Positions 27,706-39,518 of a stretch of 64,000 nucleotides of DNA are shown piece by piece. The notes under the pieces were generated by a model. That model was not told where the DNA came from, did no database searches, and worked only from the letters and a program-made list of their open reading frames with translations. The translations under genes were made by a program, and so were the position numbers. Source of the DNA: a virus; IMG/VR virus record IMGVR_UViG_3300027804_003215, positions 1-64,000 of that record. One strand, given 5' to 3'. Numbering within the stretch: the first letter of the stretch is position 1; every line of letters begins with the position of its first letter.

Positions 27706-30700
27706 ATGGCTTATCAGAATATTCTACAGTACAATTACAGAAAATATGGTTTAGTTCCTGTCAGAGAAATCTCAGATATATGTCTGGCAACTGACGAAAG
27801 AGAATTCAACCAAGAGGTTGTTTTTTCTCCGCTTCTCATTGGACAAACTGATGGAAACGTAATGCCTTTCAGGTTTGATTTTGATTCTTCAGCCACAACA
27901 CTTTGTCAGAGAACAACTTGTTCTTTTGACTCCGACACAATAGTATCAGAAAACTATTGGAACCCTGATGATATTGACCCAAATATTTGTCCAACAGCAT
28001 CGACATTGTGTAATGTCGGTTTGACCGGTATAGACAACGGACTTGTAAAACAAATATCAGGTGAGACAATAGATATTACAACCGGACTTTATACAAACAT
28101 TAACGACAAGTTTAGTCGTTACAAATATGACAGACGTTTCAAAATGCACCCTATCACTGGTTTTACAACAACAAATAACAGACTTTGGAACGACAACTCA
28201 TACACCTATAATTTAGATTACACCACCTATGGAGATGAAGTAGGTTATTTCGCAAGATTACAAGGGGGATTTTTCCAAGGATTCTACAAATTAGCTGGAT
28301 ACGAATATCAAATTTTTCCCGAAAGACCAAATCTCGGTTGGAGTGCTGAGTTCATGTTGAGGTATAGATGGACAGGTACTACTAATATTGGTCTCAATAA
28401 CCGCTATCCCGATAACAAAGGTACTTTCTTTTTCATGGGGGCAAGAGCCGAAAACAAATTCTATCACTACGCTGATGGCAGTCCGAAACAAGATACAGGA
28501 TACACAAGGGTTACATCGGGTCTAACTTGCATGAATACTTGTGAGTGCGGTCTATCAGGAATTTCAAACTCTCATAGTTGTATACCTGTTTATCAACCCT
28601 CAGGAGTAACCTCGACAAATTGTAATTGTGGATGTCCTTGTTCTTGTGGAACTTATGCTTCAATACCTGAATTAGACCCACTTTATGATGGTGTTTCAAA
28701 TGCCATGTCTATAAGACTTTCAGGGGACACAGGAAACCCAAGAGTTTGTGTTAAAGTTTATACTATTACAGGAGGTTGTGAAACCACTGGAACTTGTACG
28801 ACAGGACTAACATATCATACAGGAACGTCCGTAACTGAATGGTGCTCAACAAGGGGTATATTTGATTTTTGTACCGGAACCACTTACTCAGAAACAGAAC
28901 ATTGGGTTCAAATAGATGCTGTGTTCAGAAGAAGAGAATGGTTTGAATTATGTGATTTGAGAGATTTGGGTGGTTTAGGATTGATTGTTTCCAAAGAATA
29001 TACGGCCACTACGGCTAACAATACGTTAAGTTTAATCGAACCTCCTATAACCCATGACAATGTCGAACCCGCCACAACTGAAGTTGTACATTTTAAAGAC
29101 TCTTGGTTCGAAGAAAAAAGATATAGATTAGGTGATTTTATAATTTATGTGAACGGAAGACCATTTATGATTATTCCTGATTTTGAGGAAATAATTCCAA
29201 GACTTCTTAATACACCAAGAGAAAAACAAATTGGTGTAGGATATAATATTTCTCTCGGAGGAGGTACTCAAGGTCTTCATGACAACCTTACTTTATCTGG
29301 AGGATGTCCACCTTCTCTTACAGGAATGACCTACCAACAAGACCCTGAGTGTCTCACCACTGAAGACTTAACACATACAATTTATTCAGGTTTAACAACA
29401 GAAATAAAATTGGAAGAAATTTTCGGGGGAAGTTTTATTGGTGATATAAGTGCCTTTAGAATGTATACTGAGCCATTGGATGCCTCTGAGGTTGCCCACA
29501 ATTTTAGATTGTTAAAACAAAGATACCAACTATTAGACCCTAATTGTGTTGTTTGTGTAATTGATTGTCCTCCAAACGATTTAATATATTCTTTCTACCC
29601 ATGCCCAACACCAACACAAACATCAACTCCAACAAATACACCATCAAACACGCCAACACAAACCGTAACACCAACTAACACAATAACACCCACACCAACA
29701 AATCTAAGAACACAATTCATTGTTTGTTCAGGGGTCACATCTTACGATGCCTGCAATTGTACTGACACAGGTACAATATGGGGTGATAAACCAAATTTTG
29801 ATGACAATATAGAATTTTATGATTCCGTGTTCGGACCTAACACTACAGACTTGACAGGTTATTTTGCGTATGGTAATGTGGTTGTGGAACTTAACTCAAG
29901 TGGTATAACTATAAGTCCGTATTCATTATGTACTACTCAAACACCAACACCTTCTTTCACACAAACTTCAACACCAACACAAACATCAACACCTACACAA
30001 ACTCAAACTAATACCGAAACTCCAACTAATACACCAACAAATACTACCACCTCAACACCTACTCCAACCAATTCAAGGTTCCAATTTAATGTCTGTTCAG
30101 GAACTACACTAAGTGATGCATGTTTGTGTCTTGATACGGGTACAATTTGGGGTGATGAACCAATTTTTGATGAAAATATTCAATTCTTTAATTCAATATC
30201 AGGTCCCAACACTGTGGATTTAACTGGTTATTATTCATATAACGATGTTGTTATTGAATTGGATTCTGATGGATTCACAATTGGTGCATTCTCATTGTGT
30301 CCGACACAAACTCCAACAAATACTGTTACTCCAACAAATTCCGAAACGCCAACACAGACTCCTACTGAAACTCCTACTCAGACAGAAACGCCAACACAGA
30401 CTCCTACTGAAACTCCTACTCAGACAGAAACACCAACACAAACCGAGACACCTACTCAGACTGAAACACCAACCCCTACAGAAACCCCAACACAAACTCA
30501 GACTTCAACTCCAACTGAAACTCCAACTCAAACAGAAACTCCTACTCAGACTGAAACACCAACACAAACAGAAACTCCTACTCAGACTGAAACACCAACA
30601 CAAACAGAAACCCCTACTCAGACTGAGACCTCTACACAAACTCCAACCGAAACACCAACTCAAACCGCAACTCCGTCAACTACAGCTACAATTGGTTCCA

Positions 30701-37846: not shown

Positions 37847-39518
37847 TATAACTCTTGTAACAGGAATATGGGATATTGGAAGGTCATCTCTCTCTGAGGG
37901 TTGGGCAAGACCCTTTCAACATTATTTGGATAAATTTGAATCCTTATTGAAAGTAGAGGAAAACCTTATTGTGTTTGGCGAAGCCTCGTTGAGGGACTTT
38001 GTTTTCCAAAGACGGAGTGAAAAAAACACACAATTTATAGAACGACCTCTTTCTTGGTTCATTAACAATGAGTTTTATCCCTTAATTCAACAAATTAGAA
38101 ATAGGGAAGATTGGAAAAACTTGTCGGGTTGGTTAAAAGATTCAACACAAGCAAGATTGGAAAATTATAATCCACTTGTTATGTCCAAGGTTTTTCTTTT
38201 ACACGATGCGAAAATTATGGACAGGTTTGACTCTGAATATATGTTTTGGATTGATGGAGGATTAACAAACACAGTTCATCCCGGTTATTTTACTCATGAC
38301 AAAGTATTGGATAAACTAACCAAATACATTTCCAAGTTTTCATTCATTTGTTTCCCTTATGATGCAGAAAGGGAAATTCATGGATTTGAATATAATAAAT
38401 TGAACGAGCTGGCTGGTGCCAAAGTAAATAAAGTGGCAAGAGGAGGGTTCTTTGGTGGACCAAAATCAACAATACCTTCAATAAACTCTATCTATTATGG
38501 ATTGTTAAAATCTACTCTTGAAGAAGGTTACATGGGAACTGAAGAATCAATTTTCAGTATCATGTGTTACAAACACTCTGATTTGATAAATTATTTCAAA
38601 ATTGAATATAACGGACTTATTGGTAAGTTTTTTGAAGACTTGAAAAACGATGTGTTGGAGGCCAAAAATGAAACAAGTGTTGTATCAAAGAATAATCTTG
38701 ATATCAACAAAGTTGGATTGTATGTAATCACATTCAATAGTCCAAAACAATTTGAAACTTTGATAAATTCCTTTTTGGAGTATGATAAAGACTACCTCAA
38801 TAAAACAAAGAAGTTTCTTCTGAATAACTCAACAGATGATTCAACCTTCGAGGCTTACAAATATCTATGTGAAAAGTATGACTTCGAACACATTATACCT
38901 GATGAGGGTAATTTAGGAATTTGTGGTGGAAGACAGTTCATTGCAGAACACTTCGACAAAACTGATTTAGATTATTATTTGTTTTTTGAAGATGACATGT
39001 TTTTTTATTGTAAAGACGGAGAAGTTTGTAGAAATGGTTTCAATAGAAAAGTAGACAACTTATACACAAAATCTTTGGAGATTGCTAAAAAAGAAAATTT
39101 TGATTTCTTAAAGCTAAATTATACTGAGTTCTTCGGTGACAATAGTGTGCAGTGGTCATGGTACAATGTACCCCAAAATGTTAGAGAAGAGTTTTGGCCT
39201 GGTAAACCAAGACTTCCACAAATGGGATTGGACCCAAATGCACCAAAACTTGAATTCAATTCAATTTTATCACACAAAGGGATTCCTTATGCGACAGGTG
39301 AGATTTACTACTGTAATTGGCCTCAAATTGTTTCAAAAACAGGAAATCAAAAAATGTTTTTGGAAACAACTTGGGCGCATCCTTTCGAACAGACATGGAT
39401 GAGTCATATGTATCAACTCACCAAAAAGGGTCAATTGAAACCCGGTATTTTGTTGATGACACCCACGGAACATAACAGGTTCGAACATTATAATAGAGAA
39501 CTTCGTAAAGAGTCATAA
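37839..39518 (+). CDS. Two-domain glycosyltransferase (HtrL/YibB-like plus GT-A)
   Basis: TLVTGIWDIGR, FWIDGG, RGGFFGG, GTEESI in the N-half; NLGICGGRQ and FFEDDM in the C-half. Confidence 0.7.
   Translation: MNNITLVTGIWDIGRSSLSEGWARPFQHYLDKFESLLKVEENLIVFGEASLRDFVFQRRSEKNTQFIERPLSWFINNEFYPLIQQIRNREDWKNLSGWLKDSTQARLENYNPLVMSKVFLLHDAKIMDRFDSEYMFWIDGGLTNTVHPGYFTHDKVLDKLTKYISKFSFICFPYDAEREIHGFEYNKLNELAGAKVNKVARGGFFGGPKSTIPSINSIYYGLLKSTLEEGYMGTEESIFSIMCYKHSDLINYFKIEYNGLIGKFFEDLKNDVLEAKNETSVVSKNNLDINKVGLYVITFNSPKQFETLINSFLEYDKDYLNKTKKFLLNNSTDDSTFEAYKYLCEKYDFEHIIPDEGNLGICGGRQFIAEHFDKTDLDYYLFFEDDMFFYCKDGEVCRNGFNRKVDNLYTKSLEIAKKENFDFLKLNYTEFFGDNSVQWSWYNVPQNVREEFWPGKPRLPQMGLDPNAPKLEFNSILSHKGIPYATGEIYYCNWPQIVSKTGNQKMFLETTWAHPFEQTWMSHMYQLTKKGQLKPGILLMTPTEHNRFEHYNRELRKES

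Follow-up and report, generated by a model that had tools for sequence, protein, structure and literature searches.

A GT60-family glycosyltransferase linked to Thr/Pro-tract genes in a jumbo phage lineage: a candidate system for cytoplasmic mucin-type O-glycosylation

A phage GT60 enzyme and its candidate acceptors

We analysed a window of 64,000 nucleotides, the first 64 kb of the 99,480-bp IMG/VR virus record IMGVR_UViG_3300027804_003215 (CheckV completeness 33%), in which a run of Thr/Ser-rich genes (27706-34900) is followed on the same strand by a block of glycosyltransferase (GT) genes that opens with a GT60-family enzyme (34973-36241; Table 1). We consider it probable that this enzyme starts O-glycans on the Thr-Pro tracts of the phage's fibre-type proteins in the cytoplasm and that the neighbouring soluble GTs extend them, a reading that is well supported by comparative genomics. 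It builds on the family, fold, metal motif and solubility of the enzyme, on conserved synteny, and on a linkage between GT60 genes and Thr/Pro tracts that extends across phage and bacterial lineages.

The GT60 enzyme matched PF11397 with an E value of 7.6e-68 (230 bits against a cut-off of 21) and the phage GT family phrog_24687 with an E value of 1.7e-164. Among 37 aligned homologues (33-50% identity), D93, H95 and H230, the DxH...H metal triad, were invariant; DxH takes the place of DxD in the GT-A families GT27 and GT60 (PMC7185993). The AlphaFold model of the enzyme had a predicted local distance difference test score (pLDDT) of 94.7. When this model was compared with solved structures, also by Foldseek, the top 29 matches were all animal or protist polypeptide GalNAc-transferases (ppGalNAc-transferases), with Z scores of 19.2-22.3 over ~275 residues and a root-mean-square deviation of ~3.5 Å, and the next matches were generic GT2-type enzymes with Z scores of 18.3 or lower. 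The model also shows an additional beta-rich domain of ~90 amino acids (aa) at the C-terminus (residues ~329-415). No hydrophobic or transmembrane segment was found in this enzyme or in any other GT of the window. Thus, by sequence and by predicted fold, the protein is clearly a member of GT60/PF11397 whose fold is closest to the GT27 ppGalNAc-transferases, as a sequence-only reading of this DNA had anticipated.

The family to which it belongs is large, with 4566 representative clusters at 50% identity, and a protein search with the phage enzyme returned 6941 protein clusters at 90% identity (E up to 1e-5). Among 150 family representatives, none had a Thr/Pro tract fused to the enzyme, 53 were at least 600 aa long, and about 40 showed two to four matched GT60 stretches. 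We also observed a 2461-aa metagenome protein, prolyl-hydroxylase-like by its source name (P0122), with four GT60 stretches.

The five plus-strand genes upstream of the block encode 687 Ser and Thr in 2352 residues, while the Ser+Thr fraction of the other 84 open reading frames (ORFs) of the contig averages 0.119 (standard deviation 0.045). The largest product, of 1232 aa, contains 281 Thr, 81 Ser and 115 Pro with 14 exact TPTQTE units, and its Pro+Thr content peaks at 75% per 40-aa window. It begins with an N-terminal domain of ~630 aa and continues with two Cys-bounded domains of ~95 aa each; a long (TPTQTE)n tract follows, and the C-terminal module is short. Its ORF opens at 27580, and we set the start at 27706 (M43) because relatives begin there; in those relatives the N-terminal domain is 48-98% identical, while the whole protein is anywhere between 651 and 1843 aa long. 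Atlas look-alikes of the N-terminal domain were all viral, some of them with Laminin_G_3, which gives a lead towards a LamG/ConA-like domain. Tandem Repeats Finder confirmed the repeats at the DNA level.

The sequence-only reading had described these genes as five consecutive mucin-like, probable virion proteins. The five genes and their Ser/Thr content stand, but Thr/Pro tracts occur in only three of the proteins (1232, 175 and 412 aa), and homology supports a virion location only for the collagen-like fibre protein, through PHROG tail-fibre families. The 168-aa protein is only mildly Ser/Thr-rich (26%) and gave no family match in Pfam or PHROG searches, and the PHROG matches of the 412-aa protein were confined to its PT tracts. 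The collagen-like protein matched Pfam Collagen (PF01391, E value 4.9e-21) and PHROG tail-fibre families (best phrog_5073, 3.3e-25), and it has the uninterrupted Gly-X-Y repeats and tail-fibre homology expected of collagen-like phage fibres. Its 47 Gly-X-Y triplets are nearly devoid of Pro, Lys and Arg (10 Pro and 7 Lys+Arg in the whole protein). The GT25 family includes collagen galactosyltransferases, and a GT25 gene lies 3 kb downstream of this gene. A hydroxylysine acceptor is not possible in this protein; judging from the repeat sequence, Thr at X or Y of the triplets could be a glycosylation site.

The four genes of the GT block overlap one another, and all of their products are soluble. 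Immediately after GT60, the GT25 product matched PF01755 (E value 5.4e-15, 56.2 bits against a cut-off of 24) and had no NCBIfam match. The 311-aa HtrL-like ORF had no Pfam match and showed local similarity (E value 2e-5) to the HtrL domain of the 559-aa protein encoded next, as well as 29% identity (E value 2e-23) to ORF332 of the Xanthomonas phage XacN1. A membrane anchor in this ORF was considered and rejected, with the hydrophobic residues 11-29 assigned upstream of the probable start M19. The 559-aa protein matched HtrL_YibB (PF09612) with an E value of 9e-18 (65.3 bits against a cut-off of 24.1) and is 43% identical to XacN1 ORF330. Because its TIGR02192 score (71 bits) was far below the cut-off of 264.9, we class it from its sequence as domain-level kin and not as a YibB equivalent; its C-terminal half matched PF00535 below the cut-off (E value 0.0065). 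Of the "GT60-like, GT25 and two HtrL/YibB-like" enzymes called earlier, then, the GT60 and GT25 assignments were borne out and the 559-aa protein is HtrL-like at the level of a domain, whereas the 311-aa ORF is so only by local similarity and by its homology to XacN1 ORF332.

Linkage of GT60 genes to Thr/Pro tracts in phages and bacteria

The GT60 gene occurs on ~600 IMG/VR contigs, and the best 80, which were kept, are at least 85% identical. Upstream flank of 3 kb or more was available for 50 close relatives, and every one of them had one to five Thr/Pro-tract ORFs upstream of GT60. The summed length of these ORFs ran from 362 to 2610 aa, so that the tracts are hypervariable beside a conserved enzyme block. 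Co-occurrence of GT60 with Thr-rich genes had been set beforehand as a refutation test; every one of these relatives kept the tracts, and distant phages and bacteria were positive as well.

To look beyond close relatives, we scanned IMG/VR for (TP)5-coding DNA, which was found on at least 120 contigs, and examined 33 long ones for PF11397. Eight of the 33 carried it, and in six of these eight a tract ORF lay within 5 kb of the GT60 gene, in differing gene orders and with GT60 proteins of 36-82% identity. In two of the eight, GT60 stood at the end of a baseplate-distal module homologous to positions 89349-95749 of the studied contig, where the same module-end position is held by a 301-aa protein with 37% Pro+Thr. 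In related phages (L252:9680-10876 and L253:9947-11188), a more divergent GT60 (35-40% identity) stands at the end of the baseplate-distal module, with a small fibre-type protein before it and a 265-aa gene and a Thr/Pro-tract protein after it.

Two jumbo phages, XacN1 (Xanthomonas) and RAS14 (Stenotrophomonas), carry GT60, HtrL-like and HtrL/GT-A genes with 47%, 29% and 43% identity, respectively, to those of the window. XacN1 is a very distant relative: it has only 24 genes in common with G001, a complete relative of the studied phage, with structural genes 20-30% identical. It encodes 14 Thr/Pro-tract ORFs, several of them beside baseplate-wedge, sheath-completion and head-completion genes. 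XacN1 virions contain at least two Schiff-stained glycoprotein bands, and the authors of that study proposed ORF334, the GT60 homologue, among the enzymes responsible (PMC5852040). Across phages, (TP)3-coding matches numbered 19, 5, 29 and 19 in four GT60 phages; among ten comparison phages, P-SSM2 had one and RaK2, Atu_ph07, SCTP-2, RSL1, phiKZ, KVP40, G, GAP32 and phiCbK had none. PF11397 was absent from the five of these ten that were searched for it (RaK2, Atu_ph07, SCTP-2, RSL1 and phiKZ).

GT60 homologues were also found at more than 565 bacterial genome loci. In 45 bacterial genomes, we located (TP)4-coding matches relative to the 8 kb around GT60, which make up 0.31% of the DNA. Within this distance lay 125 of the 240 matches (52%). 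Ten of the 45 genomes were positive, compared with at most 0.82 expected even when each overlapping match counts as independent (P ~2e-8), and in seven of the ten the GT60-adjacent tract was the sole (TP)4 tract of the genome. The positive genomes belong to the Gemmatimonadota, Acidobacteriota, Actinomycetota, Bacteroidota and Alpha-, Beta- and Gammaproteobacteria. On the phage counts and this bacterial test, we reject the idea that tracts and GT60 genes lie together by chance.

At 13 Burkholderiales loci, GT60 is a fixed member of a type VI secretion cluster: TssF, TssG and TssA come first, followed by a fimbrial-like gene, then GT60, then VgrG. Eight VgrG genes were found nearby, and seven of them have a Pro/Thr-rich C-terminal tract; in Ralstonia and Achromobacter it grows to at least (PT)30. 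The arrangement of sequences suggests that the VgrG spike tail is glycosylated in the cytoplasm.

Proposed mechanism and competing explanations

For the acceptor, the sugar, the elongation steps, the location in the virion and the biological role, we propose the following. The soluble, retaining GT-A enzyme, with its DxH...H site, would place the first sugar on Thr (perhaps Ser) of the Thr-Pro tracts, most likely an N-acetylhexosamine (HexNAc) taken from a uridine diphosphate (UDP)-sugar. Its acceptors would be the tract proteins encoded just upstream together with tract proteins encoded elsewhere in the genome. The three downstream genes (GT25, HtrL-like and HtrL+GT-A) overlap and are probably translationally coupled; their products, along with other soluble GTs, would probably extend the glycan. 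A variable cassette of 6-deoxyhexose, fucosyltransferase-family and methyltransferase genes may, as a conjecture, supply a strain-specific outer part. The expected product is a set of stiff, protease-resistant, glycan-coated stalks on fibre-type appendages.

The additional sugar genes lie on the minus strand at 9.5-25 kb and encode at least seven more GT domains, two methyltransferases, Gmd, a ColD-like dehydratase and an Fcl/ColC-like reductase. The conserved GTs at 20019-25043 may act on the same glycan. The adjoining cassette (12569-20017) has flanks that are 77-84% identical to G001, and between the same conserved flanks G001 holds a different set of 6-deoxyhexose, GT11, GT10-like and methyltransferase genes (L089:4444-9907). 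The cassette is of colitose type, and its genes were compared with the GDP-L-colitose pathway (Gmd, ColD, ColC). Gmd of the cassette matched PF16363 (E value 8e-120). The ColD-like protein best matched Protein Data Bank (PDB) entry 2GMS (Escherichia coli ColD/WbdK) at 1e-61, compared with 3e-29 for a perosamine synthase, and has His instead of Lys in the aligned active-site stretch. The reductase scored 174 bits on the GDP-L-fucose synthase model, whose cut-off is 500, and ColC and Fcl are not distinguishable on this basis. Such a cassette fits a variable glycan cap and fits work on host glycans equally well. The sequence-only reading saw no flippase, polymerase, undecaprenyl transferase or membrane-spanning protein, and this held up: all GTs of the window are soluble, no PF02397 phosphoglycosyltransferase was found in G000, G001, G002, XacN1 or RAS14, and neither the complete relative G001 nor XacN1 contains a flippase-, polymerase- or ligase-like polytopic protein or any ORF with more than four hydrophobic segments.

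Several observations weigh against GT60-initiated glycosylation of virion tracts. No homology places the three tract proteins in the virion, and the predicted fold of the 634-aa N-terminal domain of the 1232-aa protein gave no usable model (mean pLDDT 34). Because a strong terminator-like hairpin stands between the tract genes and the GT block, the two are probably transcribed separately. HtrL/YibB and GT25 are best known from lipopolysaccharide (LPS) core clusters, and GMD/ColD from O-antigen synthesis. Searches of PDB sequences with the GT60 enzyme (phmmer and the 37-sequence profile) gave no match up to an E value of 1, so the relation to GT27 rests on fold, motif and literature. Of the long (TP)5-bearing contigs, 25 of 33 lacked PF11397, although many are fragments, and because small complete phages and proviruses also carry Thr-Pro tracts without GT60, the tracts do not need the enzyme. 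Similarly, 35 of the 45 bacterial GT60 loci had no exact (TP)4 tract nearby, and the phage linkage evidence is drawn from few lineages. The glycoprotein bands of XacN1, finally, come without identification and without a knockout that ties them to ORF334 (PMC5852040).

Some of these points would be explained if the whole GT complement, GT60 included, remodelled glycans of the host envelope on its cytoplasmic side (intermediates of LPS core, O-antigen or capsule), for superinfection exclusion or another auxiliary metabolism, and the tracts were unglycosylated linkers that happen to lie nearby. The HtrL/YibB, GT25, GT11, GT10 and GMD/ColD-like families are typical of LPS/O-antigen loci, the cassette differs between close relatives as O-antigen loci do, and the terminator-like site stands between tract genes and GTs. 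We nevertheless regard this explanation as unlikely: GT60 is a polypeptide-modifying family whose model here is closest to ppGalNAc-transferases, the GT60-tract linkage in distant phages and bacteria is far above chance, complete relatives lack a phosphoglycosyltransferase, flippase, polymerase and ligase, and XacN1 virions carry glycoproteins (PMC5852040).

A different acceptor on the same tracts is rather improbable. The founding GT60 enzyme, Gnt1, acts on hydroxyproline (in Skp1), and a phage 2-oxoglutarate (2OG)-Fe(II) prolyl hydroxylase could likewise modify tract Pro, to which GT60 would then add N-acetylglucosamine (GlcNAc). Besides this precedent, G001 and G002, both complete relatives, have three PF13640 oxygenase genes apiece, and the prolyl-hydroxylase-like name of the metagenome protein with four GT60 stretches points the same way. 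XacN1 and RAS14, however, combine the GT60 module and many tracts with no PF13640 gene; the G001 oxygenases are at least 40 kb from GT60 and none is on the 99-kb contig; and aquatic phages often carry 2OG oxygenases for unrelated reasons. We find it quite improbable that GT60 glycosylates non-virion proteins, whether of the host or non-structural proteins of the phage, with the tract proteins serving as secreted or cell-bound factors. The missing virion homology of the three tract proteins would agree with this, as would the position of their genes between replication genes and outside the main tail module, but the adjoining collagen-like gene is of tail-fibre type, relatives have GT60 and tract genes in the baseplate-distal module, tract genes of XacN1 border genes for the baseplate and for sheath and head completion, and signal peptides or transmembrane segments were not seen. 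Highly improbable, in our view, is glycosylation of phage DNA (hydroxymethyl-pyrimidine sugars) as protection from restriction. The block does adjoin PolB, dUTPase and exonuclease genes, the 559-aa protein has, in its C-terminal half, a weak match to a PHROG named beta-glucosyl-HMC-alpha-glucosyltransferase (E value 4.8e-4), and DNA-hypermodifying phage GTs are known (cited in PMC12619734; YerA41). Yet the fold and family of GT60 point to polypeptide acceptors, and the sole thymidylate-synthase-family (PF00303) gene in G001 scores on TIGR03284 as a genuine ThyA (302.8 bits, cut-off 108), with no sign of a hydroxymethylase; the window's own incomplete contig has no PF00303 gene. A weaker point is that restriction-enzyme digestion of XacN1 DNA appears among the methods of PMC5852040, with its outcome absent from the portion of that text consulted.

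Known systems and genomic setting

The nearest relatives by family are the protist GT60 alpha-GlcNAc-transferases of Dictyostelium and Trypanosoma cruzi and Gnt1, with which the phage enzyme shares PF11397, the DxH motif and the absence of a ricin-type lectin domain; like the protist enzymes, it appears from its gene neighbourhood to act on Thr/Pro-rich mucin-like tracts. The mucin-type protist GT60 enzymes are Golgi enzymes, whereas the phage enzyme is soluble and cytoplasmic and has the extra ~90-aa beta-rich C-terminal domain. GT27, which holds the animal and apicomplexan mucin-type initiators, offers the closest solved structures and a shared metal site made of DxH and a C-terminal His, and its members act on Thr/Ser/Pro-rich tracts. 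The phage enzyme is nevertheless not a GT27 member: sequence identity is 12-15%, and it has no lectin domain and no membrane anchor.

Serine-rich-repeat adhesins of Gram-positive bacteria provide a functional parallel: there, a cytoplasmic GlcNAc-transferase, GtfA/GtfB, starts the glycans, and several extender GTs from the same locus build them up along a long, repetitive tract of hydroxy amino acids in a surface fibre. By analogy, the phage system would likewise combine a cytoplasmic initiator with extender GTs on a repetitive tract, but the adhesin system uses a GT4 GT-B initiator, a Ser-rich tract and accessory Sec export, none of which is present in the phage. In the mycobacteriophages and XacN1, phage-encoded GTs are thought to modify the phages' own structural proteins in the cytoplasm, and XacN1 has a homologous GT60 module. 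In mycobacteriophages the glycans are on the C-termini of capsid and tail-tube subunits (a passage of PMC12619734, citing Freeman et al. 2023), while here a GT60 enzyme would be the initiator, and fibre-type proteins with long, repetitive Thr-Pro stalks are the candidate acceptors. Giant viruses (chlorovirus Vp54, mimivirus fibrils) also encode the synthesis of sugar nucleotides, have many soluble GTs as well as methyltransferases, and glycosylate their own particle proteins outside the endoplasmic reticulum and Golgi (discussed in part in PMC5852040). They differ in their eukaryotic hosts and in GT families and linkages, and no GT60/Thr-Pro pairing is described there.

Mycobacteriophage virion glycosylation, mucin-type initiation by GT60 and GT27 in protists and animals, and staining of XacN1 virions are therefore already known. 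In the literature searched, we found neither a pairing of GT60 with Thr-Pro tract proteins in phages or bacteria nor a reported function for any prokaryotic or phage GT60 member. A broader and tentative reading, which we hold to be possible rather than probable, is that GT60 enzymes form a widespread system for mucin-type O-glycosylation that works in the cytoplasm and is found in both prokaryotes and phages, with Thr-Pro stalks of contractile-injection-type appendages (phage fibres, baseplate proteins and VgrG C-terminal extensions) as substrates. If so, mucin-type initiation would not have been invented by eukaryotes, nor would it be limited to secretory compartments, and the large prokaryotic GT60 branch would gain its first function. 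Beside type VI spikes, the pairing of enzyme and tract suggests a modification, open to test, of a bacterial weapon that has been studied in depth. Demonstrated cases of phage-particle glycosylation are very few, and a dedicated, self-encoded mucin-type system would be a new layer of appendage building and diversification, in which the glycan coat could alter stiffness and adhesion, protect against proteases and hide the appendages from recognition by hosts or grazers. XacN1 is cultured and its virion glycoproteins have already been stained, so the idea is directly testable.

Table 1. Features of the window and type VI loci discussed in the text
Position	Strand	Feature	Basis or remark
12569..20017	-	Variable sugar cassette: GMD, 261-aa protein, ColD-like dehydratase, Fcl/ColC-like reductase, GT11, GT10-like, TylF O-methyltransferase, methyltransferase, GT2	
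20019..25043	-	Conserved soluble GTs (GT2, GT2+GT4 fusion, GT1-like), interleaved with dUTPase and exonuclease	70-78% identity to G001
27706..31404	+	1232-aa modular tract protein, candidate acceptor	Composition, relatives
31419..31925	+	168-aa protein, fibre-type N-terminal motif, Ser/Thr/Asn-rich, no mucin-like tract	
31972..33069	+	Collagen-like (GTS/GID)n fibre protein, 365 aa, globular C-terminal domain	Pfam, PHROG
33073..33600	+	175-aa protein, two small domains and one (PT)n linker	Maximum Pro+Thr 0.60 per 40-aa window
33662..34900	+	412-aa protein, Cys-bounded domains on three Thr/Pro linkers, candidate acceptor	
34922..34947	+	Terminator-like hairpin, 11-bp stem then T run	Between tract genes and GT block
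34973..36241	+	GT60-family (PF11397) soluble GT-A transferase	Proposed initiating polypeptide HexNAc-transferase, from sequence and model
36241..36975	+	GT25-family glycosyltransferase	Start overlaps GT60 stop
36911..37846	+	HtrL-like protein, 311-aa ORF	Likely start M19 at 36965; homologue of XacN1 ORF332
37839..39518	+	Two-domain protein, 559 aa: HtrL/YibB-like N-terminal half, weak GT-A (GT2-like) C-terminal half	
39535..39915	+	126-aa protein after GT block	Stands alone in this phage
L323:2878-14639		Type VI GT60 locus, Ralstonia sp. 25C chromosome 1	
L286, L305, L306, L308, L312, L321, L325, L328, L332, L334, L338, L339		Further type VI GT60 loci	

The 126-aa protein encoded after the GT block is 48-51% identical to L250 1584-2816 and L251 13574-14791; in these two contigs its homologue is the N-terminal part of a ~405-aa Thr/Pro-tract protein 3' of the GT block. 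NodU-type carbamoyltransferase genes were observed directly after GT60 in XacN1 (ORF333, L083:13415-15712) and RAS14, and G001 has two in tandem (L092:3465-6729). NodU carbamoylates a GlcNAc residue of Nod factors, and since NodU-type genes travel with the system, its glycan may, by analogy, be carbamoylated.

GC content is ~33%, and the encoded proteins include helicases, a family B DNA polymerase, a tail sheath protein and components of the baseplate hub and wedge. A tRNA scan of the window found none, and megablast of the 27-45 kb region against GenBank phages gave zero matches. Genomes of close relatives are as long as 321-326 kb, and one of them has direct terminal repeats; these large genomes, together with the tail sheath and baseplate genes, identify the source as a jumbo myophage, and its lineage is abundant, mostly freshwater and uncultured. 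The top GT60 matches filed as bacterial genomes (L262-L267; 69-73% identity, ~34% GC, one on a 230-kb contig) are contigs of metagenome-assembled genomes labelled Saprospiraceae, Bacteroidia or Bacteroidetes. They look like phage-lineage contigs binned into Bacteroidota genomes, and this binning gives a weak hint to the host.

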